Assembly (NCBI GenBank): GCA_002633005.1
Contig: NMRA01000403.1
Span: forward strand, 189,930-253,929
Direction: 5' to 3'
Origin: Phoronis australis
Lineage: Eukaryota; Animalia; Phoronida
DNA length: 64,000 nt
Program-made: the position numbers and the translations under genes
Notes under the pieces: model-generated
The model's database searches: none
Seen by the model: only the letters and a program-made list of their open reading frames with translations
What the model was told of the DNA's origin: nothing
Shown: one piece after another, positions 16,115-46,467 of the stretch
Position numbering within the stretch: the first letter of the stretch is position 1
Layout: each line of letters opens with the position of its first letter

Positions 16115-16204
16115 GTTCGATCAGCTGCAGAAAATGGAAATTGTTCTGAACTTGTGAAATATATAAAACGTGGGTGGGATGTGGACCAAGAACTTAATCC
16201 GTAT
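16115..16204 (+). CDS. Ankyrin exon VRSAAENGNCSELVKYIKRGWDVDQELNPY
   Basis: tttcag acceptor, gtgagt donor, 90 bp, phase 0-0; joins as ...NPY|GTALH to 35487. Confidence 0.7.
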
Positions 16205-19200
16205 GTGAGTATTCACACATAAACGCTCGTATGATCATCATTGGCTTGAAGTGCACCTTTTTAAAGAAATGACCATTGTTACACGTTCATCAGAATGGCA
16301 TTGCTTTCCTGGTTTTATGTTGAATATTTCTATATCAACACTCTATACTGTTAACCAAAGCAACAGGTGAACATCGTAGTAACATTACAACAGTAATAAC
16401 AAAATATTCACATTTAGCTGCAAAAGTTGTAAATATGGCAGATGTTTTTCTTGATTTACGGTAGTACGTCGGTGAAAAAAAATTAATCAATTTATCGTAT
16501 AAAGACCGTTTAGTATGGAAATGCTGGCAACTTTACTAAGGAGCACTTTATAGACGCTATTGGGACAGTCATGAGAATCAGTGATCAAAAAATATTTTTA
16601 CCATGGAACGCTATTAATTTTTCCTGCAATATCGTCGACTGTCTCCAGGGTCCGCCTGAAGGATCCCGAAAACGATCGATGATAGTGCAAACAATTAGAA
16701 ACTGGCCGATTTGGGCAGACCACAGTCGCACCGGAGAGACAGTCTTTGAAAAGTGGGTCCGATTTTTTTAGAGTTTAACAATAATCTTGACCTGAATCTG
16801 TTGACAGATTTCGATATAGGACTACAGGAAGAAAGACGTTATTCATTAAGAAAAAGTATGGTATAAAATGAATTTAGTAATGCTATATAATTTCTAAATT
16901 CCGTGTGTAAATTGGGAGGGTGTGACATGTATCTATGCCTTGGTTATTGTGGATTTACGAGTGGCTCGACTGTAAGATGGCGGAACTAAGGAAGGCATGC
17001 CTGAAAGAGACCCCGGTAGAGATCGGTAGCCGTCTCGGGCTTCGAAAAACTGTCCAAATTCACGTGTTCTTTTTTAAAATACACGGCGTAATCTCGCGAA
17101 TGGCCTAGCGAGTTTCTAGCGTTATTGAACTCTACCCAGATCGAGTGGTATTCGAATTTTGTTTTGCTTATGTCATTTACTTTGTTGAGAACTTGAGGTG
17201 TTATTACCTAAATGCATTTTTCATTGCAATTGCATTTTGGACGACAAGGTTTTTGACTATATTCGACCCTTTCATGACACCAGTAATGATTATTGCAAGC
17301 TTGATAATATAGTCTGTCTAGCTCAAGCAAAAGTTCCCGCACAATTTACATGTACTTGGTGCATTATATCACCATAGTCAAAACGTTTAAATCGTATGTA
17401 CTTATCAGACGATTCAAAGCTTGCATTAAAGATGCGATACACTGTCAGTAAGTTGATTAGATTTTTTTCTTGCGCACGGACTCGTCAGTGGGGTTTAAAT
17501 GGCATTTCATCATCTTCTATTATGATTAGATTTCTTTACCAGTGCTTTTGGGTAATAATTTCACCATCCAGACTCAAATAAGAATAGGCCTGTGTACAAT
17601 TGGGGATTCTAGACTAACACATCATCTCAGCCTTGAAGTTTACATGTGTGTGCCTTTTACGAGTACTGAGCTTAACCAAGATTCAGTTGTAGTTGGTTCT
17701 TGGGATGGTTTCGAGATTTGGATAAAATTTGACTCTATCACTGACTATGTCATGGGTGCTTTTGGAAGTCTGTAATTGATGTAGAGAATAAAAGGGAGAC
17801 CAGTTTTCCGTACCCCTTCATAAACAAAACCTGGTTTAGAAAATACGTCATCTACAAGTGGTCGTGCTACCCGAATCGATAGATACATTTACATGTCATG
17901 TGGGAAGTGAAGAGTGTATGCATAGTATGCAATATTCGATAAAAGACAAATTTGTAACAGAAGAGATCTTTTGAAACCTTGTCAAATGGGGATTAATTAT
18001 CCAACATTAAACCCAATTTTTATATTGTTATCGTATCTCATGAACAACTATAAACAGGAGAGATGTAGTACTCTTTTCACTCATAAACCAAAGTGAAATA
18101 AAGTTATTGAAAATGAGGTTCTTGTACATTTCATTCACTTTTAAAGAAAGACTGCTGCAGTGATTCTGAATTCTTTTCTAATTGGGTACCATAATCCCAG
18201 TTTCAAATAGAAGGGTACTAGGCTCCTGTCGGTAGAATTTTGTTGAATAAATTAATGATCAGTAGAGGCATATCTTTATATTGGTGTAATTATTTATTTG
18301 TTATATAGTCGTAGCAATCACCTTTTTACATGAATGTTTAATCGATTGATGCATATTGGAACACACGACACGTTTTGTTATTGACAGTCTTTATTCCGCT
18401 TCGTTCATACATGTATGTTCAGAATAAAACTCTACACTCAACGGAACATAGATGAAGTGACTGACATACCGACACAATTGACTTATCCCCAGGATTTTGG
18501 GTGACGGCTTACTGACCAATCAGAATGCAGCATTCTTGAAACACCGTCGTTTCCAAGCTGCCATTTTACCCCATTAACAACACGTCGCCAGGTAAAATTT
18601 ATTGTTTGTTTGTCGACATTTCGCAAGGGGTGGAACTTGCGATAGGTCAATCAAAAGGTATACCTAACACGATATTTCGAAACAACCGGGGTACTTGTTT
18701 CATTCTCAAGTGTATATAATATGACGCAGCAATGCCACCACAGAGCATAAGCTGGATACTTACACAGTGGGACACGGCAGCTGTGAAACACTGCAAAGAA
18801 TGACAAATGAAGTGGGGTAAAGAGAAAGTCACGCAACCAACTGTAACGTGCGGCGCGACCCTGTTTGCTGCTCATTCAAAACAGGCGTGCGTTCAGTAAC
18901 GCTAGGACCTACGCTAGGACCTAGCTAAAATCTAGCCAAAGTCACGTGTTCTCATTTAAAATACACGGCCATATCTCACGTAATTTCACGAAGTCTTGCT
19001 TTTTAGGGAGGTCCTAGCGTTACTGAACGGGAGGCTGGCTTCTTAATTGCAATCAAGAGTGATTAGAATACTTTCGATTGCAGCACATCGTGCTCTACGT
19101 ACCGAATTGACGTGCTTTCCACAATTTCTTCACGGGTGATTTTACGTTCGTGACGTTGCAAAAATTGATCTAGGATGATTTTCTAGTAAAGTTGTGACAT

Positions 19201-22200
19201 TTGGTAGGGTCTCTTCGACTTGGAAATTTGGCAAATGATCTGGACTGTTTGCAAACAAATGGTATTTTAATACCCACATCTTAAAAGATGTTGCTTTGTT
19301 TGTGAAGTAATCCAAGCAAAGAGCACATAAACTACATGTACGATTGGTATCTCCCATCTGGTGATTTTATAATAAGACATAAGTTAATTTTGTTCGCCTT
19401 GCCAAATCAGTGAACCAAAAGTCGTCTCAAACCATTCTGTAAGCATGTTACACAACATGCACGGTGTCTGCACTTGAAAAGAAGCCAAAACGAGTACAAA
19501 AAATATTAGAATACAATTTAGTTTTGACGGAATTGGTAAACCCGCCTAAAATTTACCATTTCAACTCAATGGTAGGTTACACCTCTCGTTCTTTGTCACA
19601 TTATAGACTAATTGATATGGTGCATGCATGCAACCAGCTTAAAAATTGAGGGCTCCAATTTTGAGAATGGGTACCTTTTATTGAAAGAAACAGGGTACAT
19701 GTACGTTCACAGCTATGAATTGGGCATTCGCTGAATTTAGTTGGTTCCTGTCTTATCAGTGGCCTTTTGTCTCGTTTTTTCTGAGTTTTTGTTTCTCTGA
19801 GGCGGAATAAGGCTCAACATTTAAAAAGAATAGTATGAGATGTGACATTAATTCAGCCCACGAGTCTTGATCACTGTGGATTAAAGTGTTTCTTACGTTT
19901 TAAATTATTTTAAAAAATGCGATAATCGTCATCTTCAATCCATCATGTCATAGACAATCCTTTCTAAGCAAAATCAGGCGAAGAATGGATGCAGTGAAAA
20001 AAGCTTCAATCTATACACTATCGTGTACAACTGGCAGCATTTTAGACCAATATGAAAAGAAAGAAAATAATGCTTACTTCTAGCGTCAGGTTTACATTGG
20101 ACACAAAGTGTAAGAGGTCCGAATACAGCTTCACCAAACACAGACAGTTTTATCAAAATTGAGGTTCAAGTCTGAGAATTTGCAGACTGGTCGACTAGTG
20201 AGAGTGATGACTTGAGTGAACTTTCATAGCCTTCGAAAAGAGCAACATCATCAGTATATTGCAACAGTTTGCACTCCGTATTTTCAAATTCGTTTCCTTT
20301 GCATCATGATTTTTTCCTGAACAATATCTGGAGAAAGATGTCACAAGTGCAACAAATTGCACTAGTTTAAACAACGTCCAGACAGCACCCCAAATCTTGC
20401 AGCAACTCCATTCCAAGAATAACATATTCTACAACAGTGTTGTATGTGGATGGCTCTGATGCCTACTGCTCTCTGCATATAACCAAAATCAGGAGACAGA
20501 GTCTACAACCGCGGTTGGTTGAAAAGAGTTCAGAAAATATATAATATTGCATTATAACAAGATTTGAATTATGTAATAGTGCTTCAAACCAACTTCTAGT
20601 ATATTCGTGAACAAGAATTATTTGTCTCATAAAATTCAAGCGCGCACCCAGGGGGAGTGAGCCTCCCATTTGGCGAAGTGGACTAAAAGGTCCGCCTCAG
20701 AGAAACAAAAAGTCCGAGAAAATGAGACAAAAAGTCCACTAAGAAGGCACAAACGTACAATTCACATCTCTGGGCGTGGTACCCCGTTTTTTTAGTCTTT
20801 TGGCTTTTTTGTATGTAAAAGGTCCACATCCTCTGAAATTCGAGCCCCCCATATTAAAGGCTGGGTGCGCGCATGAAAATGATTGGAAGCAGTAGTGCAA
20901 GGAAGGCATGTATATTCTCCGATTTAACGTCCCGCCAAATAGACCTTTTGATCATCAGGGAGTAACTGCGTTTTAACTCGATCGGCAACAACACCTGAAA
21001 AACATGCACTAAGCAAAAAGAAGAGTTTCCAATTTCGTTAGCTTATAACGATTGTTTTTCTTCTCAGGAATGAGCGTGTTTATATCTTGACCCTGTAATT
21101 TAGTGGGTCGCCTGTTTCAACTACAGGTGTAGTTAGCAGTTCTCTGTAACATAGGTAGCAATGATTTTCAGAAAATAACATCCATTGGAAATCCATCTAA
21201 CCAGGGAGGTTTTTCGTATATTCACAGTTTTTAGGTCTTCCTTAGTAAATACAGACCCAACCTTTGCTAACTTTACGTAATTTTGGAACGACGGTTGCCG
21301 ATGTTGGTGCTTTCTCACCTGACACACGCCCTTGTCTACAGTCAGGTTTCTGGGTCGCGGTTATTAGTATCCTATCCCAGACCAGTACTTGTTCGACAGA
21401 CAACTATAAATTGATAAGAAAAATCACATAAATTGATGAAGCTATAGCAAATATTCCACTGAACACCATGTAATAACCTCTAACAAATTTGTGTAAGGAA
21501 CAAACGAAATAAAGAGGACAGAGGAGACATCAATACCAGGTGAACACGAAATACAGTTGGATTCTAATATCAAAATAGGTTAATGACTGGAGAAAAAAGT
21601 TCCTGAGGGTGAATATCGGTTGTAAAACCTTTTGCAAAGAGAGCATTGGGAAAAAAGGCACGGGGAACACCTTCAAATTAATATGTAAGCGGGTAACAAA
21701 TGCTCTAAAAACCCATATTTATATAAACCCGTTGAAACCATTTTTACCTAAATTAACCTTCTGTGCAAGACCTCTGTCTAGTCAAAGAATCCAAACCCTA
21801 ATTTTTAAGTTGTTCCGTGAGTTGAAATGACGACGCGTGCTCCGATTTAAAAAGCAGCGCTTTGCACGGCAGTTCTCACGTGCACACGTGTTAGCTACAG
21901 TGAAACACTTGTTTGAAGTATTTAAAGGGGCATTCATTAATCACGATGAAACGATCAGATTTCAGGTGTACAATTCCGATTTGACCTTGCGTATTTCGTC
22001 ATGATGATTCCGACTGAAGCTGCTGATAAATATTTATCTGACGTAGTATTAATACGTACAGGCTAGGTTTTTGACAGAAGATTTGTAGAAAATCCCAGCA
22101 GTTAAGGACAAACGACGTGATGGTTGTTCACAGATTCCGGATGAGCTGTTCTAAGTAACATCGATCACGTAAACGCAGTTGCCTGGAAGACTTTTACTAT

Positions 22201-25200
22201 CAAATTGTAGCAGGTTTTTCAGATTTGCTCACNGCAGGCTAGGTTTTTGACAGAAGATTTGTAGAAAATCCCAGCAGTTAAGGACAAACGACGTGATCGT
22301 TGTTCACAGGTTCCGGATGAGCTGTTCTAAATAACATCGATCACGTAAACGCAGTTGCCTGGAAGACTTTTACTATCAAATTGTAGCAGGTTTTTCAGAT
22401 TGGCTCACAATTCTGTCTTCACGCCAACTTATCAGATTTTGCGTTACAATAAAGGAACGCCGAAAATTTTCGTACCTTTCAGTCATTTGCCGTTAACATT
22501 CACAGGTGCCTATGGTTTTATACACTCTGTTCAACATTTCCCTAGATTTTGTTACAGGGTATTCATTTTTTCCAGGCGTAATATTTGCACAGTTGTCAAT
22601 CCAAGCGTGGTTGATGGTGAAACGTATATTTTCCGGGATATAATTTTCACAAACAATTCCCCAAGTGGCAAATGTTAAAAGTTACAGATTCAAAATATAA
22701 CGAAATATGTTAACCAAATATGTCACCAAATGCGCGCACCAGGGGAGGCTCGGGGGGCTCGAGNATCTGAATGGTTGACCCCCCACCTTGCCGCTTTTTG
22801 GCTGTACAGTGGTCGGTGGATCCGTGGACTGATACTTAATTACCATTTTCTGAAAACGGCATTGATGATTATTGCTTATTACAAAAAATATGTAAGTAAA
22901 TCAACTGGCATGCGTGCTTATAAATGATAGATGGCGCTGCTTTTGTTTACGTGGAGACTGAAGAGCATCTAGAATAAGAGCAGTAACACGAGGACCTTGC
23001 TATAATTCAAGACTTCGCGAGATATTGTCCTGCATTTTAAATGAGAACATATGGTTTTGGATAAATTTAAGAGAGGTTCTAGTGTTACTGAACTCACCCC
23101 TGCCTTGTTTTCTATCTGCCTTATTCGTTCCACAGGTAAAGGAAGGCACCCAAGGTGGATATGACCCGCTAGTGTTCAGTGCAAAAAATCCTTCAACTTG
23201 TCAATAGTCATTGTAACTTTGGGATCATATTGTAATGTCCCTGCTGGTTACTACAAATTTTAGTCGCCACCAGTCGCCAGAAATCTGGTGTTCCCCCCAC
23301 ACACCGGGCACCTTAAGATGACGCTGAATATTTCTGCCAATGTGATCATCAGTGGTATAAAAAGGTACACATTCACAGTCAATAGAAAATAATTCACGAG
23401 AGACAATTTTATTAATGACTCATTCATGACAGACATGAAGTAAATAGAAGTAACGGTCTCGACTTCTTATATCACACATCTTTCAGTGGTATGCTACAAC
23501 ACTAGGCTAAACGTTGAGCTCATTTACCACTTCATTCACTAAATCTGACGACATAACAGCATATTCAGCAGAAATAGCATTGTCATAAACATTGCTGCAG
23601 ACAACCTCGAAAAAAACCAACAATCTGCGATTCACTTAACATCACAGATAAACAATTTCACAGTGGGTTCTCGTAATGTTTTCTCCATTTTGGCACTTCA
23701 GAGGGTGAACGTTTTTACCTGACTTATCTCCTTCATCGAATATGTTCGTCAGAAATTTCTTAACCTTTGCTGAAAATCTTGTTGACCTTTTACCTTTTTT
23801 CAATGCCTAACCTATTGCTTCAGCATTCGTCACATCCAAACAGTACTCTGAGGCTGCCTCAAATGACGCTCCGGTTCTTGCATCTGAGAGCATTTCTGAC
23901 CACTTTCGTGCGATGTGGTCATACGTGGTTTCCCTTTGTAAATGTTCAGTGTGGTTACCCACATCCAAATGCTGACCTAGTTCTGCGTCTGTAGCAAAAA
24001 ATTTCGAGTAACCTTGCTGGGTACAAGGGAACTTTTGCTGAGGCTCTTCACTAGATACAATGCCAATCTTAACTCCTGGTGTTGAAAATCCGCCATGTCT
24101 AGAGATGTTACTGTATTTGAGAGAAACATGCTTCCCATTTTCTCAGTATTTGTAAGAACTTACCGTCACCTACATGGAATGATTTCCACGCGCGAATTCC
24201 TTGGGTGGAATAGTGGGAATTTGGGAATGTGCTTATACCAGGAACTGAGTATTTTGGAAAACACTTTGTTGCATTGACTGAGGATGCATACACATAACAT
24301 CCCCTTCACACGGCCACTGGAAAGTAATTCTTCTTTCAAATCCAGAAAGTTTATGATATTGTTACCTTCGGCTTGAGTGGAGCGATCTTGCGATCACAGA
24401 GATCCTTTCCATTCTGACTTTCACTATCGAAACAGAAATGCCGGTAGTTGATAAGGCTCCTACGTTCAGGAGGAGAGGATCAGAGTGGTAACATCCAGCA
24501 TTACCTGACTCTTCCATGACTGGTACTGTTCAATCAGAAATTCACCGACTCTGGGTAGTACGAGTCCGTACTCTGGCAGAGGCCTTGCTTTGTGAGTTAA
24601 ATGTACTTCCCTGTATCTCAAATGTTCAGTGGTGTCTTTGACATAACTCACTAAAGCACAAAGTTTTTGTGATCGGAATTTTTGCAGAATAAACTCTAAA
24701 GGAACATGGAGACCCATCGACATCGTCCGCCACTTTGTCTTCTCAAAATGCACTTGCTTCTCTCAAAACCAGTCATTACAAATATCAATTCTTACTCCAT
24801 TTAAAAGTCCTGTAGAGTGTTTAAATTAACCCGATAATGTAAAAGAAATGAAAAAATACAAGAGGGTTACACGTACATTTTTATATATCCTCAAGCTTAA
24901 ACTCAACTGACTCCCTCAGTGGGCAAAAGTCATTGGGTTCAGTTTTGATACTAGCCGCGTAATAAACCCGGAAAACATCTTGTTTTCATTTTAAAGAGTT
25001 TAAACTTGGTTTATAACTATTTAAAGCAGACTTCTTGTTTAAAAGAAAAAAAAGTTTATTCAAATGGTCTGTAAATTCTGCTCGTCATTTCCAAACTATG
25101 AAAATAGACAGTTTTGCAAGACAATTTTCACTAAAGTGCAAAGTTGAGGCAAGATTTTTTATTACTCAGACATCAAGACTAACTCTTTAGCTGTATGTTC

Positions 25201-28200
25201 AAAACGTCACATAAGGCTACAAGGTGTTTTATGGCAGTAAGAAGGTCACAAAAATGGCCACTAAAATTAGCCCCAAAAAGTGGTCAGTGGATTATCTCCC
25301 CTGTCTAGCACAAAACTGTTATATTTTAATAAATGGCTCAAAATTATGCACAGTATACGTTGGTTATTTCAGCCACCAAAATATAGCTTTTGATCTATTT
25401 TGTATGTTACTCATTTCTGTTGTTGAAAGCATGCGATTTTTGAGACGGCTAATAATGTGCCAATTTGTGTTATCATGCTCCAGCGGCGAAATTACGGGTC
25501 ATTGAGTGCACAAAATTTGGCATTTGGGTTTTTGTTAGGATACCTACCCATGTACAAAAAATGAAGTTGTTTTAAATTTTGACGTATAGACTGATTTTTG
25601 AAAATCTACTGGTTTTTATATGGACTGCCTCTTAAATCGTATGTACTTATCAGACGATTTAAAACTTGCATTAAAGATGCGACACACTGTACAATTTTCA
25701 GTAAGTTGATTTGAACTGTTTTTGCGCACGGACTGGTCATTGTGGTTTACATGACATTTTATCATCTTCTATTATGGTTAGATGTCTTTACCAGTGTTTT
25801 TGGGTAATAATTTTACCATCTAGACTCAATAAGAATAGGCCAGTGTAAAATTGAGGATTCTAGACTAACACTTTATCTCAACCTTGAAGTTTACATGTGT
25901 GTGCCTTTTACGAGTCCTGAGCCTAACCAAGATTCAGTTGTTGTTGGTTCTTGGGATGGTTTCGAGATTTGGATAAAATTTGGCTCTATCGCTGACTCTG
26001 TCATGGGTGCTTTTGGAAGTCTGTAATTGATGTAGAGAATAAAAGGGAGACCAGGTTTCCGTACCCCTTCATAAACAAAACCTGGTTTAGAAAATACGTC
26101 ATCTACAAGTTGTCGTGCTACCCGATTAGATAGATACATTTACATGCCATGTGGGAAGTGAAGAGTGTATGCAGAGTATGCAATATTCGATAAGAGACAA
26201 CTTTGTACAAGAAGAGATCTTGTGAAACCTTGTCAAATGCGGATTCATTATCCAACATTAAACCCATTTTTTTCATATTGTTATCGTATCTCATGAACAA
26301 CTTTAAACAGGAGAGATGTAGTACTCTTTTCACTCATAAAACCAAAGTAAAATTTGTTACTTATATTAAGTTATTGAAAATGAGGTTCTTGTACATTTTA
26401 TTCACTTTTAAAGAAAGACTGCAGTGATTCTGAATTCTTTTCTAATTGGGTACCATAATCGCAGTTTCAAATAGAAGGGTAGGCTCCTGTCAGTAGAATT
26501 TTGTTGAATAAATTAATGATCAGTAGAGGCATATCTTTATATTGGTGTAATTATTTATTTGTTATATAGTCGGAGCTTTCGAGACGTGGTACCCTGTTTT
26601 TTTAGTCCTTCGGCTTTTTTGTATGTAAAAGGTCCACATCCTCTGAAATCCGAGCCCCCCCCATATTAAAGGCTGGGTGCGTGCATGAAAAAGCTTGGAA
26701 GCAGTAGTCCAAGGAAGGCATGTATATTCTCCGATTTAACGTCCCGCCAAATAGACCTTTTGAATATCAGGGAGTAAATGCATTTTAACTCGATCGGCAA
26801 CAACACCTGAAAAACATGCATTAAGCAAAAAGAAGAGTTTCCAATTCTTTAGCTTATAACGAGTGTTTTTCTTCTCAGGAATGAGCGTGTTTATACAGTA
26901 TCTTGACCCTGTAATTGAGTGGGTCGTCTGTTTTAACTACAGGTGTAGTTAGCAGTTCTCTGTAACATAGGTAGCAATGGTTTTCAGAAAAAAAAAACAT
27001 CCATTGGAAATCCATCTAACCAGGGAGGTTTTTCGTATTTCACAGTTTTTAAATCATCTGCTACGTCCTCCATAGTAAATACCGGTCCAACTTTTTGCTA
27101 ACTTCACGTAATTTTAGAACGACGGTTGCCGATGTCGGTGCTTTCTCACCTGTCACAAGCCCTTGTCTACAGTCAGGATTCTGGGTCGCGGTTATTAGAA
27201 TCCTATTCCAGACCAGTACTTGTTCGACAGACAACTATAAATTGATAAGAAAATCACATAAAATTAATGAAGCTATAGCAAATTTCCACTGAACACCATG
27301 TAATAACCTCTAACAAATTTGTGTAAGGAACAACGAAATAAAGAGGAAGGAGGGGACATCAATACCGGGTGAACACGAAATATAGTTGTATGGTAATATC
27401 AAAATACATGTAGGTTATTAGCAGAAGAATAAAGTTCCTGAGGGTGAATATCGGTTGTATAACCTTTTGCACAGAGAGCATTGGGAAAAAAGGCACTGAG
27501 AAGACCATGTAATAACCTCTAACAAATTTGTGTAAGGAACAAACGAAATAAAAAGGACAGAGGGGACATCAATACCAGGTGAACACGAAATACAGTTGGA
27601 TTCTAATATCAAAATAGGTTATTGGCTGGAGAAAAAAGTTCCTGAGGGTGAATATCGGTTGTAAAACCTTTTGCACAGAGAGCATTGGGAAAAAAGGCAC
27701 GGGGAACACCTTGAAATTAATAATTATGTAAACGGGTAACAAATGCTCTAAAAACCCATATTTGTATAAACCCGTTGAAACCATTTTTACCTAAATTAAC
27801 CTTCTGTGCAAGACCTCTGTCTAGTCAAAGAATCCAAACCCTAATTTTTAAGTCGTTCCGTGAGTTGAAATGACGACGCGTGCTCCGATTTAAAAAGCAG
27901 CGCTTTGCACGGCAGTTCTCACGTGCACACGTGTTAGCTACAGTGAAACACTTGTTTGAAGTATTTAAAGGGGCATTCATTAATCACGATGAAACGATTA
28001 GATTTCAGGTGTACAATTCCGATTTGACCTTGCGTATTTCGTCATGATGATTCCGACTGAAGCTGCTGATAAATATTTATCTGACGTAGTATTAATACGT
28101 GCAGGCTAGGTTTTTGACAGAAGATTTGTAGAAAATCCCAGCAGTTAAGGACAAACGACGTGATCGTTGTTCACAGGTTCCGGATGAGCTGTTCTAAATA

Positions 28201-34200: not shown

Positions 34201-37200
34201 CATAGAAAATTGTATCCTTGTCGAAACAGCATTTAGAACGTCTGTGCGTAGAAAGAGTCAAATTAATGTCAAAAACTCAAATTGCAACATCTTTTATTTC
34301 GTTAGTCACGTTCTCTTTAATTGATTTCTTGCGATAATGAAATGCCCCTTTAAATATATTCAAGAACTGACAAATGTATCAATTTATCGCGTGTACACGC
34401 GAAAACTGTCTGGAAAAGCGCTCTTTTTAAAAGCAACGCTTCGCCTGGCCAGACCACTGCCACGTCGTCTGAAGAACAGTTGAACAAGTTGGGTTTGCGT
34501 CGAAATGGGAACCACAAGATTGATTGATTTTCTGAATAGCAATCTTGATAAGAAGATTGGTTTTGGTAAAATGTGTTTCTTCATGTGTTTAATTTGTAGA
34601 GCAGGGTTTATCATTTCCAGGATATTGTTCCTGCTAGCATTTTGTTCGAGACAAGTGGAATTGTGTTCCCAGTGCCCGTGTTCTTGGCTTGTAACAAACC
34701 CTATACCAAACATTGCCCAACTTATATTTTCTTAAACATCTTCAGACTTCAGTTGCGTTTTGATAGTACCCCGTGCCAATACCATATTCACCCTATATTG
34801 ATGTTCTCTTATCCTTTTATTCCGATTGTTCCTAACTTTAATTTGTTAGAAATTATTTTGGATCTCAGGAAAAAGTGAAACCGTACTTCGTAAATTAGTT
34901 TGACTACATGTGCATGTATGTTTTTTCAATTCATGCGTCCAGAAGGAATTGTTTTGCGGTAGACCTAATTAAAAGAAACCAGACGACCACGAAAGTTTTA
35001 CTCATATAATTTCAGCTTTCAAATAGAGTATATTTGATTTTTAAATGTCTATTACATCATATTTTGTGTCAAAATTTTTCCAGCAAATTAAATTTCGTCC
35101 TGTTCATCTGTCTAAAAACGAAAAGTGAATTAAACCATTTGCTCTCATGAAATTGATTATTAAATATGAAGATGATGGTCATATTGTCAATAACAATGAT
35201 TGTTCTAGCTGCAACCAGTCGCCCATATTTTTAATGAACATGCTATGTCTTTGCTCTGAGGATTATTTCTGACACTAACAAACATACTACGAAAGCGATG
35301 TAAACTTGTTCTTTATAAATGATGATCTATTACAAGACAACTGATATATTGCATGATAAACAGAAAGTAGATTTAGTAATTGTGTGTACAATTGTCTTAT
35401 TTCAACGTTTCCATGATGAGTAATTAAGATTCACGGTGAAGTTAATGATTCTGAAGTTTGCTATAACTTGTTCATTGTTTCTGCAGGGCACAGCACTACA
35501 CCGTGCAGCAGGGTGGGGACGTACAGAGGTGGCGCGTGTTTTGTGTAAAGCAGGCGCTAATATCAACAAGCAAAACGTGGTAATAGAAACTACTTGAGAC
35601 GATTTTATAATTAAGACAGTGTTATCTTTGTTACAAAGCTGTAGACTAACTGAAGTTTAACTAAACATGTTGTGTGTAATAACACTTTTTATTTCTCATC
35701 ATTTCGACATGTATTTTTCAATCTGTACCCGGTACATGCATCTTAAGAAACAGTGAGGTTTGAATTGTGTCAACAATATATTTGGCGATTTAACCTTGAT
35801 ATTTTTCTATTCTTAATGGTAATCGTCCATTCAACATTACAACTTTATATTAAACAGGAAGCCGTTAAACCGGTGTATAAACACAACATGGAGGGGTCAC
35901 TGTGAAGTTATGGCGGCGCTCAGTAATTTCTGACAGTCGACGTCTACACCATGTTCTGTTCTTACTTCAACATTTTAAAATCACCTGTAAAACTTGAGTG
36001 TTGAAATCATTACAGGTATTGTAGCGTCTTAGAGGGGTCAGTAATGTTTCATTTATGTCACCTTTCAAGTTCACTGATCCCCTGTGTATGTTAATTTGCT
36101 CTAAACGTTGATCGTCCATTCACACATCTCCATTATATATTACATAGATGATGGGCTGGACACCGCTGCACTTGGCAGCACTGTGTGGTCATACAGAGAC
36201 AGTGAAGTGTCTTGTGGAACACAACGCTACAGTGGATGTCCGTACTCAGGTAATTAAGGACACACAGGTTGTTTGGTTGAACTAGTTGTTTACACAAGAG
36301 ATGATTAAAACTGTTGAAGAACAAATTTTGTTGATATTTTCCCAATTTAATGTCCTTAAACAATGTTAAAATAAATGTCGTCTGCTTTCCGTTAGAGAAC
36401 TGCCAAAGCTGCATCCGAACATTTCAGTTGATTCATTATTGCTGTTTTATTTACCGATATATATTCTACATTTCGTCAAACAATAGTTTCCTCCAGTCGA
36501 TCTGGATCGCCTCATTTAGTTTAGGACTTATTTTCTACCTTATTTTGATTGTCCAACACTTTACAGCGCACAATTACTTGCTGTGTGTTACCGTCCTGTA
36601 ACGAGACAGGGAACACTGAACACGCTCTGTTGTTTTGTTCTTAAACTTAACATTTCCATGTTGAAATCATTACAAGTATTGTAGCGTTTTAGAGGGGTCA
36701 GTAATGTTTCATTTATGTCACCTTACAAGTTCACTTTCCCCCGTGTATGTTAATTTGCTCTAAACGTTGATCGTCCATTCACACATCTCCATTATATATT
36801 ACATAGGAGGGCCTGACACCGCTGCACTGTGCAGCACTGAATGGTCATACACAGACAGTGAAGTGTCTTGTGGAACACAACGCTACAGTGGATGAACGTG
36901 ATAAGGTAATTAATGACACACAGGTTGTTTGGTTGAACTAGTTGTTTACACAAGAGATGATTAAAACTGTTGAGGAACAAATTTTGTTGATATTTTTTAT
37001 AATCTAATGTCTCTCAACAATGTCAAATTAAATATCTTCTGCTTTCCATAGGAGGGCCACACACCGCTGCACCTGGCAGTACAGGAGGGTCATATAGCCG
37101 TCGTACAGTGTCTCATCGAACTCCGGGCCAACGTGAATGTTCGTAATGAGGTAATTATTGACACACAGGTTGATGAACACAATACGTGACTAGGCTAATT

Positions 37201-40200
37201 ATTGCGTGTTTTAATTAAATAATCGCAAATTGTGAAGTTCTGGAACAGAAAGGTATAAAACGTGACGTCCTCTTGACACACCCACTTCGCTATATTTAAG
37301 GATGACCGGCATTCTCTCATGTTTGTTCACTTTAGAATGGAGATACATGTACAGCATTACACCTGGCGTCGCAGAGTGGAAAGGCAGCGGTCGTAGAGCT
37401 GCTTGTCAATGAAGGCAGTTGTGAGGTGACTGCCGTAAACAAGGTATCTCTAGAGTGCTGCACTCCGAGCTTAGTAAATGTTCCAATAAACATGTTTTAA
37501 ATGAATATTGAGTTCGAGGAATTGTTCATTCATAATAAATATCTCATCAAAAATGAACAACCTCTTTACGTGGAGTTATACAAAGAGTCACTTCTTCACT
37601 GCAAGTACCTTCCCTGAACACGCAGTGAAACCAGAGTCGCTGGTGTGATCGTACTATTGGCATACTAACTAAAAAACCAACCACACCATAAAGCGCCGAA
37701 CACATACACAGATTTTAATTTTCTCACCTCATAAAGTTTATTCAGGTTTTTAATCACGTCAGTGCGCATTTAGGAACCCCACTTAAGTTTTTTTAGCCAA
37801 GATTGCTTTAAAAAGGGACTTTGAACAATCAGACTTCTAAGTCACATTGTCGCAAGTCCGTTCGGTGCAAACTTTTCGATAGGATAGTAACAGAGCACAG
37901 CACTGTACACTCATCTGGCCGGTGAGAGGATATTCCGCGAATAAAGTCGCTTGTGTTGCAGTTGCTAGTGGAATATATAATACCCACACACAAAATGTGT
38001 GCTATGATCAGGATCAATCAAAATCGTTTCCTTTTGAGTAAAATAAATGCATGTCTAAATATTTCGTTTAAATGTCTATTCCTATTATCAATTTCAATGA
38101 AAGTTTCGAATCTCATCCTCTATTAATTAATTAAAACCATTTGATAATAACCAAGTACTACAAGATGTGGATTTTTGTCTAAAAACGTTTTGTTGATGCT
38201 ACGATGGTCAACACAAAAGTGACAAGACTAAATCGCGGTGTGTGGTATGGCGGATCTTGATCACGAAATAAAAAATACGTAAACATTTCAGTTTGAAAGC
38301 CATCAAACAGTTTGGTTCACCCCTCACAGTACCATCGTATTTCGGGTACCAGGACATAGTTCTCGGCGCAGCCCATCAAATGCTTTTTAGATTAAACGTT
38401 CTGGTCAAAACCTTCCGCAAGACGTGCGCTTTCATAGAAATGCAATTACGCAAAAATTAAATGAATGGACAAAAATATTCATATCTTCAGGAAGAATAAG
38501 AGACTGGCATTTCTTGAGATGGATTTCACATTACGACTGAGACTAAATCGAATCTTAATTATATTAAAAACTTTGTTCAAATTTCAACATTGTAGTGAGA
38601 AGAACGGTTTGGGGGTTTCAAGTTGTGAGACTTAGTTCTTGAACGTAACATTTTCGATGATGTGTGCACTGAGTGTATTGTGTGGAGAACGTGGAAGTTT
38701 TAAAACTCTTTCGGTAATAGCTTTTTGGGGGATGGTTTATTATTAAAATATTTATTCGCATTCCACTTTATTGTCTCAAATGTATGAACTAATAGAATGG
38801 CAACCCTTTTCGTATTGAGTCACTTACATCATTATTAAAGATGCTATATTACAGTATAATTCAATCACTTTCCTTTTCTGTGAGATTTGTCGGGTAGCAT
38901 ATAATTTTATCGATGGCCATGGTGCAACCTACTTTAATTCCTTCGGTGTGAGCATTATAGTATATGAAAAACAAAAAAATCACCAGAGGGCTGCAGGTTA
39001 CTTGAATTTGCAATAAAACTCTCAGCGTGTCTTTATTTTGATCCCACTGCACGACTATGTATGTTAATGGCGTTGTTTGATTTATGTTCTCTGTAATGAT
39101 GTAAACTTGCGAGCTCCATACGACGTCATTTGGCCTGGGTTGTTTGTAAAATGTATTTAAAAAATGTGCCACCGGTCGGGGTATAACCACCTGTCTCTGC
39201 CACGTGCACAATCTTTTTTCTTATAAACTGTGAATTTTAGGCCCCCACTTTCGGGTGTTAAAATCTCAATTTCCATTATCTTTTCCGTGCAAATTTTAAG
39301 TCATTCTTGAGCGCATATCTGGATAAATTGCCAAGGAGCTCCTTACTGAAAGATGCACAAAATTGTACAAATAAACATGTAGAGAACTGGAAATGTGTGT
39401 ATGTTTTAATATTTGATTGCCGTTTATGAAGTAAAACTACATGTGAAGGGTTCGTTGCTCTATGATTTGCATGTTTATGCTTCCACGAAAATCGGCAATT
39501 CTCCGATTTACGAATAAAATCTGCCAATTCTTAAAGAAACATCTTCAGAACATTGAGCTTCTAGACCCCCAAGCAACAAGTTCCGTAGATTCCAAAACGT
39601 GTTACGTATTTTAGAATGTTGATGTTTTAGGACACTTTTACCAAGGAAATTTAATGAACCAAGGTGTAGAGCTGAGACAATAACAGTGGGGGTGTCAGTA
39701 AACTTTTTTTCATTGGTTTCCTTTTATAAATTCTGAATATTTGTCATGTAAGCCAGTGTGTCTGTGTTTCATGTATTTTTACCCTATATGCGCGTATTTA
39801 GGCCAATACGTAAAATGAAATATTATAAAGCCTACAAAACATGCAAGTATACAAAGGATATTATGCATGTGTTTGTGCGAAACATTTGAGTATGAAAATT
39901 TCCTTATGGCAGTTATTTCGGATATAGGTGTTAGTGCCTAAATAATGCGTAAAACACACAATGCTCTACACTGGGTTACACTTTTCGTTGTTTACTCAAA
40001 AAATTTCGTTTAGTGTTCTTCTTTAGAATTAAAGTGCATTAAAATGTGCCAAGTAAACAAATCTCTTACAGTGTATGCTCTAGTGGTCGAATAAATGTCA
40101 GTGGCATTCTGAATACGTGCTGTGCTTTTACTGAAACACAGACTGGTTAATGAAAGCTGTTTCCACTACTACAAAAGATTGAACGAATTCAGTTGACGCG

Positions 40201-43200
40201 ATATAGGCTGAGCATCACCTGATTTGTGATTAAGGCATTTTAAGATGGAAATCAGTGCTTGTCCGATGTTTCTTACACGACGACAATCTCGAGACTGTCG
40301 TGAACACATCGGCCACGCGTTAACAGCTCATCATTTAGGCGAAGGTCAGTCGATGTCATGTTGAGTGTCACCAGATCGCCAACAGATAATTCTACGACTT
40401 AAGCTGCCGAAAACACTTTGCCTAATGGTGCTTCAGTTGCTGCGTGTTGACACCGATGGCACCGACTGCACTCCGGAAAATTTCCAGGCAACTGCCCGCC
40501 TTCCATCGACATAAATGCGAGCCACCTGATTGTTTTAAACGTGATAGTGTGTTGATACTACCCACCCAGAACAATGATATCTTTGTTTCTGTTTCGCTTA
40601 CTACAGTATTATACGTGTGTGTTAAGGATTTGTATGCCCTAATTTAGCAGTCTACCTATTTTGATAATGCTTAAAAACATGGATTGTAACAGAGTTGATG
40701 TTTGTAGTTTCTGAAACTAAACTACAAAATTTGATTTTTACCTCTCTACTACTCTGCCACTATTTGCATCACGTGACTTAACAGAAAGGAAATGTACATT
40801 GATAACAAAACAATATCAGATTTTATAACGTATAAATCTTTAAGATGATATCTCAAAACGTTACTGTTTCTAATACACCTGTTCGTTTTTTTGTATAACT
40901 CGTGAAATCCCTGTTGACAGCCTCTCATGCAAAAATGCATTGTTTTAAAAACAGTTACGTACAGTGTGTTAGCAAACAGTGCATGAGAATAGTTTCCGAT
41001 CAACCCTTTTGAGATAGGGTACTCCGAAGTTATCCAAATGTCCCTGGAACCCACACAACCTTAAAGAACAAGCGCCTCATACAAAGCTGCTGGTTACATA
41101 TTTGAAACAGCTTGAGTGAAGTCAAGAAGCAAAATTTACAAATCAAGTGAACAAATAAGTAATATCGCTCTATTCTGTAATACCCGGCAATAAAATGTCC
41201 TTGATATGTGACTGAAATAAATCATAGTTGTTTCATTTTGAACTTGGCGTAATTTTTGACAGTTTAAATATCATTTCCACGAGCTGTTCATCAAACAATT
41301 GAAAATCGTGCAAATTTGTTTTTGGTTCATCAACACATTTCCATGCTTCTTGTAGGAAGGCAACACGCCGCTGCACAGCGCGTCTTCACGTGGCCGGCTA
41401 GCTGTTGTGGAACTGCTTCTGAAAACTGGTGTCGATGCGACGGTTGTTAATACGGTAAGATAAGAGTGTCAATCAAATTGTGTGGTATGCTATCAGTATC
41501 TGCTTTCAATGGATAGGTAAGAGTGTTTGTAGTCATCATAACTCATTACAATTGTATATGTAAATATTATGTATGTCCTGGTACACTGGAACAGCGTCCA
41601 CCGTTGCTGATAAAGTCCTTTTCTACTTTTCTTTAAACTCCGAAGCGACTATCGACACGGAATTTTTAACAAATTTAAACTATTCACTTGATGTAGTAGC
41701 CAGGTCGCTATGTGACTGCTTCAAATTTTGAAGAACCCGCAGCCCAATGAAGCCAGGAACTTACGTGAAGTATTACCATTTCGTTCTCAACGTTGTATAT
41801 TCGTCGTCTTTCCTGTTTAACACGCCAATCTACCAGCCTCGCATTGCTTATTTGGCGATAGGTGCAAGTATTCGGTTCATATTGGTACAGTTCACGTGCT
41901 TGATATTATAAAATTTTAGCACATGGTAGGAAGTAAATTTTACGTGCTTGTGTTACTCTTCAGTGTGAGCTTTAAAGGTAGTAAGTTGTGTCTTGCAGGT
42001 CGGACAAACAGCTTACGATGTCTGTGGCGACAATCGTGACATGTTTTTTAACAAAGTCGACGATGAGACTATCGAGAAAATAAAGAAAATTCTTGAGGTA
42101 TGTAGTAGTGAAAAAAATCAGATTCTTGCTACAAAGACCATATTTTGTGATTAATGTCATTAACGCCATTTGCACGATTGGGAGAAGTCGTGTGTTCGAA
42201 CCCCGATCTGGACAGAGATATTTTCAGACTTAGCTATAGGTCACGTGGTGCGACCAACAGATGGCGTGTCAGACGACTGATAATTCTCTCTTTTTTGTTG
42301 TATCAGTGTTATTTTGTTATAAATATACATCTCGCCTAGGCGGGTACAAGTAAGGTTTTCTCTCACTGCATTGGGGATCTTTGTATCATTTAAACAGCTC
42401 GGAACGTAATGTAGTAAATACTTGTGTCTAGAATCTGATATTTCTTTTACTTTATTTGACAAAAATCGTTGTTCACTGTAGAAGAATATGCGATTAAAGC
42501 AGCAAAGCGGAAAACCACCACCCTCAGATGAAAATGCGAACGGAAATCTCCTTCCTGTCAACGAGGAAGAGAGCGTACTATTAGCGTGGCTGGAGGGTTA
42601 TCTGAAGTCGAAATATCGAGACATCCCTGACGGCGAATTGGACGTCAGCGTAAAAATAAAAACGAGAGAGAACGGCACATTCCAACTGCTGAGTGTGGAT
42701 ACCAAGCTGATGGGTATTATATTGTGACTAAGTGTAAACTAAGATATATGTAAACACAGTCTTCATATAGACCGTTAAGTTCCATGTATAACGATATTTT
42801 TATTGAGACACCTCTGGAACTCAATACTTTAAGCTGTCATTAGCATGGCGAAAGTGCACGATGACAGCGCATTTCCAGAGGATTAAAACCGTTACTTGTC
42901 TTGCGTATTCAAAGACAAGAGGTGACTATGACTTCAGAATGGAAAGCATGCCGTTGTTATCAATGACAGTACATGTATATTAAGAGCCAGGACTAGGAAT
43001 TACATAGCCAGCTACATGTAGCTACATATACAGTACGTGATGGCTTCCTGTAAGCTAAAAAACTGGTCAAGAAATTCAACTATATCAGTTTTGATTGCAA
43101 TCATTAACTATGTAAAATTTCAAAATCTTTGTTAAGAACCAATAACTCATAATTACAAGGTGGTTAATGATACAGAGTAGATCCTATTAATTTGTGTACA

Positions 43201-45219
43201 AAATTACATGTATGTGTGGCATGTCATCATTTTCTGGAACAACTCATTTTGTGCTCAACGTTATAGGTGGGATGTTCTCTTATGTTCTCGTTTGCTACAA
43301 AAAACCCAAGTGACTACGTATTGATAGTTCTCCACCGAAATAAAATAAACAATAACCGATTATAGAGAGAGAAAGACGTTTTTGTGTGATTTTAAGGTAG
43401 TGAAATAGTCAAAATAGTTTATTTGAAAAATAAAATGAGCACCAACAACTGAAAACGGGTTGATCGACGAGTTTGACTGTGAGCCTGGAAGTGGTATTGC
43501 TCGCACTGGGGGAATTATGCACGGGAGTAGGATTTGTCCGAGAGTAGAGAAACATGTCCACCACACCGTAAAATGTGGTTCATGAAGTCAAACTACGTTC
43601 GCTAGGGGGGAACAGCGTGCGCGTCCGAAAGATGTTGCTCGTTTGTAGATAATTCTAGGTCTGGCAAAACGAAATAAATATTGAATCTATGAATTTAAGG
43701 GTCTGGTAACTGCTCATTTACGTTTGCAAGTTACGAAGTATACGGATGTTTCATTTCCTTTCCAGACTATTTCCCACTAGTTGTACCCGTAAGGCAGTCC
43801 TGTCTTTTGGGCAAGTTTCCTGAACAAGGTCAGAACGTGATATCGGCTGAGCTCCACGAGTCATTGGCCAATGCGCTGAAGTCGGTTGTTCTACTTGCAC
43901 GTGCAGATGCACAAGGAGTGGGGTCCGGCTTCCGAGTAGGGCGCAATTATGTGATTACAAACTATCACGTGTACCAATGCCTGAATGTCCCCAGTAAGTA
44001 TTTTGTCTGTTGATTGAATGTATGAATCCGGGTTTTTGTAATTCGCCTAGGACACATGTATAATGGTTCCACTTTCCCTGCTGTAATCAAGGACCGGAAT
44101 TTTAAGAGTTGGGTTAGATTTATAGGCCTATTTTCAGTTGTCCCCAGAGTTGCGCTGTGTATCGTCACTTGCCAATCTAATGCACTGTGATGACGACTAG
44201 TCTGNNNNNNNNNNNNNNNNNNNNNNNNNNNNNNNNNNNNNNNNNNNNNNNNNNNNNNNNNNNNNNNNNNNNNNNNNNNNNNNNNNNNNNNNNNNNNNNN
44301 NNNNNNNNNNNNNNNNNNNNNNNNNNNNNNNNNNNNNNNNNNNNNNNNNNNNNNNNNNNNNNNNNNNNNNNNNNNNNNNNNNNNNNNNNNNNNNNNNNNN
44401 NNNNNNNNNNNNNNNNNNNNNNNNNNNNNNNNNNNNNNNNNNNNNNNNNNNNNNNNNNNNNNNNNNNNNNNNNNNNNNNNNNNNNNNNNNNNNNNNNNNN
44501 NNNNNNNNNNNNNNNNNNNNNNNNNNNNNNNNNNNNNNNNNNNNNNNNNNNNNNNNNNNNNNNNNNNNNNNNNNNNNNNNNNNNNNNNNNNNNNNNNNNN
44601 NNNNNNNNNNNNNNNNNNNNNNNNNNNNNNNNNNNNNNNNNNNNNNNNNNNNNNNNNNNNNNNNNNNNNNNNNNNNNNNNNNNNNNNNNNNNNNNNNNNN
44701 NNNNNNNNNNNNNNNNNNNNNNNNNNNNNNNNNNNNNNNNNNNNNNNNNNNNNNNNNNNNNNNNNNNNNNNNNNNNNNNNNNNNNACTGTGCTTCTGCAC
44801 CTCCCACTGAGGGCGCTGGCGTCGCTGTACTTTCCGTGGGCTCGCCGTCGTAAAAACCGTTTAATTTGTAATTTCAGGTTTCTGAGTTAAACCAATGGGC
44901 ACAGCGGACATTTCCTGGCCGTGCCGTATTCCCACAAATCGACGACCCACGACGAGTTCTTTACCGAACAAGTCTACAGTTTGGCAAAGGCAGCTCAGGA
45001 AGTCCTGGTTTTGTACCCGATGACAAACATGAGGCGTGCGTCGCCGCGATACAGACACGTGGATTTCCGGATTTGCCAGATTTTCATTTCGTTCCCCAAG
45101 AGGTAGTCAAGGCTCGTTCTGTGGAGCAAGGGGTCAGGGTGGAGGCTGTCTATGACTTCCTCCACACCAACCACCCTGCACTGTGTCAGGATATCTTTGG
45201 CAACAATAAGCCTAGTTAA
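16115..45219 (+). CDS. Ankyrin-repeat + FAM111-like trypsin-fold serine protease gene (multi-exon; first exon and catalytic-Asp exon not visible)
   Basis: Exons 16115-16204, 35487-35579, 36148-36249, 36807-36905, 37052-37150, 37336-37443, 41356-41454, 41999-42097, 42482-42713, 43766-43993, [gap], 44878-45219; all AG/GT bounded, and phase-compatible without stops except across the N gap. Confidence 0.85.
17391..18300 (-). mobile_element. CR1/L2-like LINE reverse transcriptase relic (copy A)
   Basis: Paralogous to 25636-26560, which reads LDNESAFDKVSQDLFLYKV and YLSNR...GVRKPG.PFILYIN. Confidence 0.65.
18890..19029. mobile_element. Short MITE-like element
   Basis: Perfect 21-bp inverted repeat CGTTCAGTAACGCTAGGACCT; related copies at about 17020-17135, 57860-57955 and 62470-62590. 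Confidence 0.7.
19950..20630 (-). mobile_element. L1/Tx1-like reverse transcriptase relic
   Basis: Minus strand reads NRGCR..., QYTDDVALFEGYESSLK (YADD motif) and KFSDLNLNFDKTVCVW across frameshifts. Confidence 0.7.
20637..20875. mobile_element. hAT-like MITE
   Basis: TIRs CAAGCGCGCACCCAG / CTGGGTGCGCGCATG; inverted partial copy at about 19670-19805; half copy at 26585-26687. Confidence 0.6.
23590..25631 (-). mobile_element. Sola3-like DNA transposon relic (transposase pseudogene plus one terminus)
   Basis: Minus strand SGNAGCYHS, ESQNGKDLCDRK, PGIS...GIRAWKSFHVGDGK, HLDVGNH...ETTYD, SQIVGFFSRL; ends ...CTC|TTAA at 25631-25635, the GAG/CTC plus TTAA signature of Sola3. Confidence 0.7.
25636..26560 (-). 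mobile_element. CR1/L2-like LINE reverse transcriptase relic (copy B)
   Basis: ORFs 26118-26333 and 25891-26139 carry degenerate LD..KAFD.V.H and GVPQG...LFILYIND motifs. Confidence 0.7.
27296..27700. repeat. Tandem duplication of about 210 bp
   Basis: CCATGTAATAACCTCTAAC...AAAAAAGGCAC occurs twice here but once in the paralogous block near 21467-21660. Confidence 0.85.
29786..31769. repeat. About 1 kb direct duplication across an n join
   Basis: 29786-30782 closely matches 30784-31769. Confidence 0.9.
35487..35579 (+). CDS. Ankyrin exon GTALHRAAGWGRTEVARVLCKAGANINKQNV
   Basis: 93 bp, phase 0-0, ctgcag/gtaata. Confidence 0.9.
36148..36249 (+). CDS. Ankyrin exon MMGWTPLHLAALCGHTETVKCLVEHNATVDVRTQ
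   Basis: 102 bp, phase 0-0, TPLH motif. Confidence 0.9.
36807..36905 (+). CDS. Ankyrin exon EGLTPLHCAALNGHTQTVKCLVEHNATVDERDK
   Basis: 99 bp, phase 0-0; tandem duplicate of 36148-36249 including flanking intron. Confidence 0.9.
37052..37150 (+). CDS. Ankyrin exon EGHTPLHLAVQEGHIAVVQCLIELRANVNVRNE
   Basis: 99 bp, phase 0-0. Confidence 0.9.
37336..37443 (+). CDS. Ankyrin exon NGDTCTALHLASQSGKAAVVELLVNEGSCEVTAVNK
   Basis: 108 bp, phase 0-0. Confidence 0.88.
41356..41454 (+). CDS. Ankyrin exon EGNTPLHSASSRGRLAVVELLLKTGVDATVVNT
   Basis: 99 bp, phase 0-0, tgtag/gtaaga. Confidence 0.9.
41999..42097 (+). CDS. Ankyrin C-cap exon VGQTAYDVCGDNRDMFFNKVDDETIEKIKKILE
   Basis: 99 bp, phase 0-0; GxTAxD terminal-repeat pattern. 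Confidence 0.8.
42482..42713 (+). CDS. Linker exon of the ankyrin-protease gene
   Basis: Open frame KNMRLKQQ...VDTKLM, phase 0-1, fits the next exon. Confidence 0.75.
43766..43993 (+). CDS. Protease exon with the catalytic His (GSGFRVGRNYVITNYHV)
   Basis: ttccag/gtaagt, phase 1-1; His codon at 43966-43968. Confidence 0.85.
44878..45219 (+). CDS. Last exon, FAM111-like protease C-terminal part with the catalytic Ser (FGKGSSGSPG...VEQGV...HPALCQDIF)
   Basis: tttcag acceptor, 113 codons plus TAA; Ser codon at 44995-44997; frame absent from the ORF track. Confidence 0.85.
   Translation, partial: VSELNQWAQRTFPGRAVFPQIDDPRRVLYRTSLQFGKGSSGSPGFVPDDKHEACVAAIQTRGFPDLPDFHFVPQEVVKARSVEQGVRVEAVYDFLHTNHPALCQDIFGNNKPS

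Positions 45220-46324: not shown

Positions 46325-46467
<143 letters not shown>

Follow-up and report, generated by a model that had tools for sequence, protein, structure and literature searches.

We analysed a window of 64,000 nucleotides from the phoronid Phoronis australis (assembly GCA_002633005.1, contig NMRA01000403.1, positions 189,930 to 253,929 of the forward strand), and found that it carries one expressed gene in which six clear ankyrin (ANK) repeats, one exon each, are spliced to a FAM111-type serine protease. Coordinates below are those of the window, which is intron-rich animal DNA with 39% GC and several N gaps. The encoded protein has about 640 residues, counting a hidden exon whose length was estimated from the spacing in relatives. 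We propose that it may be an intracellular immune recognise-and-cut protein, in which the ANK array binds non-self, binding clusters or frees the protease, and the target or a host trigger is cut. We regard this specific reading as an even call.

The original prediction had drawn 11 exons of such a gene on the + strand. All of them were found there, with AG and GT ends and a read-through without a stop, and RNA joints bear out the path. Upstream of the predicted span we found the first coding exon, exon 1 (10148-10270, +), which holds part of the 5' untranslated region and 19 codons from the ATG at 10214 (coding part 10214-10270). It appeared as a peak of RNA depth with joints to 16115. The open frame is kept across all 12 visible exons, that is, exon 1 and the 11 predicted ones. 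Exon 2 (16115-16204, +) encodes a degenerate N-cap ANK-like repeat, recognised by eye and without a Pfam Ank match.

The six repeats follow, all on the + strand: exon 3 (35487-35579; Pfam Ank 1.7e-7), exon 4 (36148-36249), exon 5 (36807-36905), exon 6 (37052-37150; 5.1e-11), exon 7 (37336-37443), which has a 6-base insert, and exon 8 (41356-41454; 2.7e-8). The array reads DIVERSIFYING. Each of these exons is one phase 0 repeat and matches Pfam Ank singly, with E values from 5.4e-7 to 5.1e-11, all above the curated cut-off. Since all six share this phase, any of them can be gained, lost or skipped with the frame kept. A hidden Markov model (HMM) of the six repeats, run against 3433 six-frame pieces of the window, gave 6 matches with E below 1e-15 and the next at 1.4, so that no seventh ANK exon was found in the window. 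Of the predicted "about 7 repeats + cap", six clear repeats stand; the remainder is the degenerate repeat of exon 2 and a C-terminal cap in exon 9 (41999-42097, +), assigned by eye with no Pfam match. The six-base insert in exon 7 (37344-37349) is absent from 42 of 43 X4 reads and from 52 of 53 covering raw reads (runs described below), indicating a private allele or an assembly slip.

Exon 10 (42482-42713, +) encodes a linker, which consists of a polar stretch and then about 50 residues of unassigned fold; it gave no Pfam match and no ESM Atlas match above 0.75. At 42500-42720 these residues read as a helix followed by strands, and the reads carry replaced residues just ahead of them. Exon 11 (43766-43993, +) encodes the alpha1 helix and first strands of the protease with the catalytic His codon (43966-43968). 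Exon 13 (44878-45219, +) encodes the C-terminal half, including GSSGSP with the catalytic Ser codon (44995-44997), FAM111-type C-terminal helices and the stop codon TAA. The predicted motifs GSGFRVG..VITNYHV (His) and GSSGSP (Ser) are both where they had been placed.

To the gene model we aligned RNA from one contig set (X1) and three stranded raw-read runs (X2, X3 and X4), which come from two studies under the same species label. The alignment covered 27500-46500 and 8700-17400 of the window and about one fifth of each raw run. Transcripts of the gene are present in all four runs, and the reads covering its exons lie almost wholly in the + strand sense. The joint between exons 1 and 2 was seen in its exact GT..AG form in 57, 3 and 2 reads (here and below X4, X2 and X3, in that order). 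The joint between ANK repeats 5 and 6 (37441-41354) had 147, 16 and 22 reads, that from ANK repeat 6 to the cap 162, 13 and 9, that from cap to linker 166, 15 and 9, and that from linker to protease (42712-43765) 141, 11 and 7. The link between exons 2 and 3 falls between the two aligned stretches and is supported by loose ends from both sides: 168 X4 reads leave 16202 with letters resembling the start of exon 3, and a loose end of an X1 contig ahead of 35488 resembles the end of exon 2. The RNA is mostly 90-99% like the window, and it comes from other animals or paralogs rather than from the window haplotype. A further 5' piece ahead of exon 1 in the RNA had no match in 8700-17400, and a 19-base search of the window was negative.

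This chain of junctions, present in three raw-read runs and one contig set, shows that the ANK and protease exons form one gene and not two. An artefact, in which exons of separate genes were placed together or the assembly was mis-joined, could draw on the assembly gaps, on near-duplicate blocks beside single Ns, on the lack of a single long molecule, and on an ANK exon depth about three times the protease exon depth in X2 and X3. We consider it extremely improbable, because in-frame GT..AG joints run from ANK repeat 6 through cap and linker to the protease in X2, X3 and X4 with 7 to 166 reads each, and X1 contigs cover every one of these joints except that between cap and linker. The possibility that the protease belongs to a kringle-trypsin gene further downstream was also ruled out, by the gene's own stop at 45217-45219 and by the fall in RNA depth by about 46 kb.

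Between exons 11 and 13 lies an assembly gap of 581 N (44205-44785, +). Unmatched letters follow 43993 in 162 reads and precede 44877 in 338, and the two sides are connected by one X1 contig; an exon with hidden letters thus lies in the gap. The first unmatched letters continue the frame into a strand that is written F-x-Y in relatives. Spacing in relatives puts this exon 12 at about 80-95 codons, which fits the 581 N. RNA had been expected to recover both the first exon and the one with the catalytic Asp. It supplied the first and demonstrated the second, whose letters are inside the N gap, so that the Asp itself is not seen. In the alignment, all 47 relatives that are ungapped at the Asp column have D there (47 of 47), and the region of the gap exon also holds a GH motif in relatives. 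The His and Ser codons are intact and the invariant Gly residues are kept, and we assume that the catalytic Asp is present in exon 12.

To place the protease, we compared its two visible exons and their relatives with known families. The His exon matches Pfam Trypsin_2 at E 0.078, below the cut-off; the relatives pass Trypsin_2. In the ESM Atlas the last exon gave only Trypsin_2 and related leads. An HMM made from the relatives alone picked exactly the two protease exons of the window among 2195 six-frame pieces, at 3.6e-23 for the last exon and 2e-5 for the His exon. A profile of 16 rows, including the two window exons, matched FAM111A in the PDB at 1.7e-28, with the next unrelated row at 0.01. 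A profile of 57 relatives, with three fish FAM111-like proteins and no window rows, matched it at 3e-37, with the next unrelated row at 7e-4. FAM111A was also the best PDB match of one relative searched singly (1.1e-5), and a poor model of relative P0004 (16 sequences; predicted local distance difference test, pLDDT, 60) still ranked it first in Foldseek at E 1.8e-6. The closest solved relative by profile is thus the FAM111A protease domain, and not HtrA, V8/Spl, NAL1 or S1A; NAL1 is absent from the PDB matches of the profiles at E up to 0.1. Taken together, these data argue that the protease is FAM111-like, as the original prediction had it.

The protein also differs from a secreted S1A trypsin, whose signal peptide, IIGG activation site and conserved disulfides it does not share, in line with what had been predicted. 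We found no leader peptide or membrane segment in the visible protein (the hydropathy maximum over the first 35 residues is 0.23), and no Pfam Trypsin match in the protease exons, whereas the exons of the neighbouring S1A gene match at 9e-5 to 2e-13. With the HMM from relatives, the alpha1 helix region aligns. The match to Glu573 is kept, but the S1-lining positions Phe537, Phe538 and His556 of FAM111A are Gly, Lys and Gln here, the Gln being seen in none of the aligned relatives. These differences mean that a preference for Phe is not to be assumed for the window protease.

Human FAM111A and FAM111B (PDB 8S9K, 8S9L) share with the window protein an intracellular chymotrypsin fold, an N-terminal alpha1, GxSGSP, the Glu573 match and C-terminal helices. 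They differ in the N-terminal part, which is an ANK array in the window protein and a PIP box with two ubiquitin-like domains in FAM111A, and identity is only about 20-25%. In the window protein, ANK repeats fill the N-terminus, about 100 residues separate the cap from alpha1, the linker has no Pfam match that would provide ubiquitin-like domains, and no match to the PIP pattern was found in the visible exons. The ubiquitin-like domains are likewise absent from FAM111-like proteins of coral and lancelet (PMC9798293).

These features bear on the idea of a non-immune protease, acting in replication stress or DNA-protein crosslink removal like mammalian FAM111A, with ANK in place of the ubiquitin-like domains as a scaffold for host partners. 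Mammalian FAM111A acts in this way (PMC9798293, PMC10920703), ANK repeats serve as adaptors in general, and the gene is expressed in all four runs. We nevertheless think this role unlikely. There is no PIP-box-like motif, and a review describes the PIP box as confined to mammals and suggests defence as the older role (PMC9798293). Conservation would be expected of a scaffold for host partners, but both the ANK face and the N-terminus are variable, and the architecture is kept in none of 58 relatives.

These relatives were collected in several searches, which were word-limited and biased to bivalves. The last exon, used as query in a full HMMER scan, returned 17 matches, one of which (P0008) was a false match to repeat sequence. 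Ten matches were looked up, and the seven that carry names are all bivalve proteins without a functional name. The closest relatives are 33-47% identical over the best stretch of the last exon. Two further searches added 7 longer and 40 near-length matches, which gave 58 distinct relatives without P0008. The original prediction had named a best match to a characterised single-copy housekeeping protein as grounds for doubt. The best relative is instead 34% identical over 155 columns and has no functional name, and the reads show many variants. A weak search of the last exon against a 5.8-billion-sequence set found no relative of 197-2000 residues. The last exon found none in metagenome contigs, and P0012 found none in viral contigs.

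We checked the 58 relatives for ANK repeats, 42 by Pfam scan and 16 short ones by a precomputed domain column, and found them in none (0/58), a result that carries the limits of the searches; ANK fusions may exist elsewhere. Other modules were frequent: 10 of the 24 non-fish relatives longer than 450 residues carry one (P0020, P0021, P0022, P0023, P0025, P0026, P0030, P0042, P0045 and P0048, all from bivalves). The modules are PARP12-type CCCH with an RHD-like domain (2), Roc-COR (1), Death (4), HEPN_DZIP3 (1), Ig with a membrane-like segment (1) and Z-alpha (1). We placed these proteins in a quick tree, which omitted 6 of 61 proteins as short, redundant or spurious. Module fusions were spread over different clades, alongside relatives that lack a fusion; this distribution suggests that modules were swapped repeatedly. 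The window protease formed a long branch with no supported placement. Judging by these domain layouts, the bivalve FAM111-like fusions look like an undescribed modular immune protease family.

Two further observations were made among the relatives. The relative with Ig and a membrane segment, from Mytilus coruscus, has a receptor-protease layout. Upstream of the protease, a RHIM-like amyloid core pattern was seen among bivalve relatives, scallop ones included: in P0015 and P0019 (residues about 67-90), and more weakly in P0001, P0014 and P0024. This is a pattern match only, with no Pfam RHIM match at the thresholds used, and it would suit signalosome-driven dimerisation.

To assess how the ANK array changes, we compared exons 4 and 5, which are copies 1 and 2 of a recent tandem duplication (units about 35999-36390 and 36659-37047; 91% over 393 bases). 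We found that 8 of 33 codons differ, and all 8 differences replace the amino acid. Over 74.7 non-synonymous sites we counted 13 changes, compared with 1 over 24.3 synonymous sites and 18 over 289 sites of the flanking introns. The rate of replacement change is higher than that of change in the introns (Fisher p 0.004; 0.026 when the first codon is left out). The changed repeat positions are 1, 2, 3, 5, 10, 14, 18 and 32. A designed ANK library randomises positions 2, 3, 5, 10, 13 and 33 as its binding surface (PMC4308713), and by these positions 4 of the 6 randomised ones are changed, compared with 4 of the 27 others (p 0.02). Such amino-acid-biased change on what appears to be the binding face favours a recognition role. 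RNA joins copy 1 directly to copy 2 (25 reads of X4 and one X1 contig); together with the absence of N between them, this rules out the duplication as an assembly echo.

The transcripts vary as well. In X4, 155 reads join a copy-1-like exon straight to 37052, compared with 25 for the two-copy joint, and some reads join the copy-1-like exon to itself; exon 5 is thus often skipped or absent. These counts indicate that the number of repeats varies by skipping, haplotype or paralog. At the junction of exons 1 and 2, X4 reads (read by hand) fell into 8 equal-length forms, in which 5 exon 1 ends are mixed with 3 exon 2 starts, and all listed variants keep the frame. Eight forms are more than one diploid locus allows, unless the sample was pooled. 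We count this variety as a second sign in favour of a recognition role.

Fungal NLR repeats gain, lose and shuffle units and have hypervariable binding positions (PMC13449251). In fungi this is an allorecognition pattern, and mosaic variants are seen here. The locus might by this likeness act in self/non-self compatibility (allorecognition or gamete recognition), with mismatched ANK-ligand pairs triggering proteolysis as fungal het genes do. We hold this to be very improbable: the protein has no membrane or leader segment and would need cell fusion or an upstream receptor, and the pattern does not separate allorecognition from pathogen-driven change.

Intron 3 (35580-36147, +) has an in-frame stop five codons past its donor, and its sense coverage is 1/4 to 3/5 of exon depth (X4, 123-263 compared with 434 at 37080; X1 contig 35563-36140). 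It is covered far deeper than the other introns in all four runs, and the read-through product would have about 85 residues (cap and one repeat). Given this coverage and the early stop, an abundant short ANK-only product or a paralog is possible. The covered intron and its stop, the unseen Asp, the long branch and the Gln at the His556 position could also be read as marks of a decaying or dead paralog, whose variation reflects relaxed constraint and conversion and whose product is a pseudo-enzyme or decoy. Several results make this quite unlikely. The frame is open over 12 visible exons with His, Ser and the invariant Gly kept, the exon 1-exon 2 variants are in frame, and amino-acid change exceeds, rather than matches, intron change.

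The mechanism that we propose builds on FAM111A. There, alpha1-mediated pairing orders the oxyanion hole and Phe is preferred; the full-length protein is less active than its isolated protease domain and is possibly autoinhibited by its N-terminus (PMC10920703). Degradation of I3 is the means by which FAM111A restricts vaccinia, and SPI-1 blocks FAM111A (PMC13245274). In fungi, gasdermin genes are clustered with proteases that bear ANK, WD40 or TPR repeats, which are read as sensors; such repeat and protease sensors activate the gasdermins (PMC12881547). In the phoronid protein, the array would bind non-self proteins in the cytoplasm or nucleus, and its specificity would be renewed by duplication, loss or skipping of exons and by substitution on its surface. 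As in FAM111A, the N-terminal part would hold the protease down, and pairing through the alpha1 helix would be needed; target binding would then cluster two chains and order the active site. The protease would then cleave the bound target, in the way that FAM111A cleaves I3 of vaccinia, and perhaps also a substrate of the host whose cleavage kills the cell or alerts it. Ligand, switch and substrate are all things that we infer.

The ANK array could also aim the protease at a target without gating it. Under this alternative, an active protease is constitutively paired and the variable array only brings it to pathogen proteins, as a direct restriction factor. Full-length FAM111A is already a dimer with activity (PMC10920703) and degrades a viral protein directly (PMC13245274), the evidence of ANK diversification fits equally, and no gasdermin or other partner was seen nearby. 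We find targeting without a switch doubtful, since the isolated FAM111A domain beats the full-length protein in activity, which suggests N-terminal control (PMC10920703), and since the residues at the dimer positions of the window protein (His and Ala) suggest weaker spontaneous pairing. An immune role in total, whether ligand-gated or by targeting, we consider probable. The immune reading of the original prediction gains indirect support from the diversified ANK surface and from the immune modules on relatives.

Several results weigh against the ligand-gated immune protease, from its family assignment to its diversification. The last exon alone gave no FAM111A match among PDB sequences, only one unrelated row at E 1; membership in FAM111 for this reason rests on the transitive profiles, which are strong. 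The Foldseek comparison that had been suggested for the C-terminal domain gave FAM111A in all of the top five rows for a model of the last exon (pLDDT 80), but the values were weak (E 0.03-0.15). In VIA this model aligned with FAM111A at Z 4.2 (root-mean-square deviation 3.4, 95 aligned) and with chymotrypsin at Z 5.3 (3.2, 76 aligned); FAM111A is about 1 lower, so that the fold is confirmed and FAM111A is not singled out. The dimer positions V347 and V351 of FAM111A, His and Ala in the window, are variable in relatives. No Asp appears in the 30 letters visible at either end of the gap. None of the reads or listed contigs reaches from the ANK exons to the protease by itself, and a chain of short joints stands in place of one. 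The selection test covers one exon pair only, and non-synonymous against synonymous change alone is not significant (p 0.18). Six of the 8 changed codons differ at two bases, which gene conversion could produce, and a pooled sample with ordinary, high heterozygosity could account for the junction variants. Among the relatives, the Ig and Z-alpha matches, 2 of the 4 Death matches and 1 of the 2 RHD matches are below the Pfam cut-off.

Other features were seen in the window and its RNA. A separate gene at 53671-62335 (+) has at least 2 kringle exons and a classical S1A trypsin domain with a RIIGG activation site, and is plasminogen/HGF-activator-like. A broken Ty3/Gypsy-type long terminal repeat retrotransposon (gag, reverse transcriptase, RNase H and integrase) lies at 646-8100 (+), just upstream of the first coding exon; its gag region occurs twice, at 251-1914 and 3022-4677, with 97% identity. 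The 19-kb intron 2 contains several near-duplicate blocks of 0.5-1 kb (90-97%) at 17387-31769, some abutting single Ns, which are likely both haplotypes assembled side by side. Spliced antisense RNA was found in intron 1 at 14297-15417 (-), with a CT..AC joint in 10 reads each of X2 and X3 and in none of X4, where the sense gene is highest. The depth of the last exon is about 10 times higher in X4 (239) than in X2 and X3 (28 and 20), runs of the same study with similar numbers of letters read. It was not used as evidence of induction, since the run conditions are unknown.

RNase L has an ANK array that controls a C-terminal dimeric kinase-like nuclease, with one fixed small ligand and conserved repeats. 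The phoronid gene shares the layout of ANK array and C-terminal enzyme, but its repeats vary and its effector is a protease. Among the unnamed bivalve FAM111-like proteases (Sinanodonta, Mercenaria, Ruditapes, Mytilus, Mizuhopecten and others; P0001-P0061), the same protease cassette sits on changing modules, with ANK in none of the 58. Fungal and bacterial gasdermin-activating proteases combine a repeat array (ANK, WD40 or TPR) with a serine or CHAT protease in one chain (PMC12881547). In contrast to the FAM111-type protease of the window, those belong to microbes and lie in clusters with a gasdermin gene; in the window, 57 further open frames of at least 78 codons in 8.6-64 kb gave no gasdermin match, in a search that would miss short exons. 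Gain, loss and shuffling of repeats with hypervariable positions likens the gene to fungal NLRs whose repeats have high internal conservation (PMC13449251), and, going by reference titles in the same paper, to exon-shuffled NB-ARC-TPR and ROCO genes of brown algae. The window gene differs from both in that it has no NTPase switch, and only one recent repeat duplication was seen.

No description of ANK with a FAM111-like protease was found in the literature searched, among the matches listed; most subscription papers, and supplements with possible domain tables, lie outside that literature. This agrees with the original prediction, which knew of no functional description. In the available text, the FAM111 review does not contain "ankyrin" or "mollus" or invertebrate sensor fusions (PMC9798293), a survey of death domains shared by bacteria and animals does not mention FAM111 (PMC8195603), and the FAM111 part of a poxvirus review has no ANK-protease fusion. 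The gene is thus a new architecture of a known protease family, with what appear to be independent signs of recognition-type evolution; fusions of repeats and effectors are already known.

A wider proposal, which we put forward tentatively as possible, is that FAM111 proteases originated in marine invertebrates as a modular effector of immunity and were exchanged among many sensors (Death, ROC-COR, ZAP-like CCCH, HEPN, Ig receptor and Z-alpha). The window gene would then be one member of a multi-copy receptor family with a natural binder library like that of designed ankyrin repeat proteins (DARPins), one exon per repeat, diversified by duplication, skipping and recombination, in which recognition of pathogen proteins leads to dimer-gated proteolysis. 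If this holds, animals would have an equivalent of the sensor-proteases of fungi and bacteria, and the antiviral activity of vertebrate FAM111A would be explained.

The gene bears on the switching of FAM111A and on the role that the family had ahead of the mammalian PIP box. A 2022 review of FAM111 suggests that defence was the older role (PMC9798293), and the fusion to a variable array, together with the other immune modules on relatives, makes this defence-first idea testable. If ligand gating is true, the gene would be a natural programmable protease, in which a swappable ankyrin binder is wired to a dimer-activated enzyme. It is also a candidate for how animals that lack antibodies could vary their recognition of pathogens.

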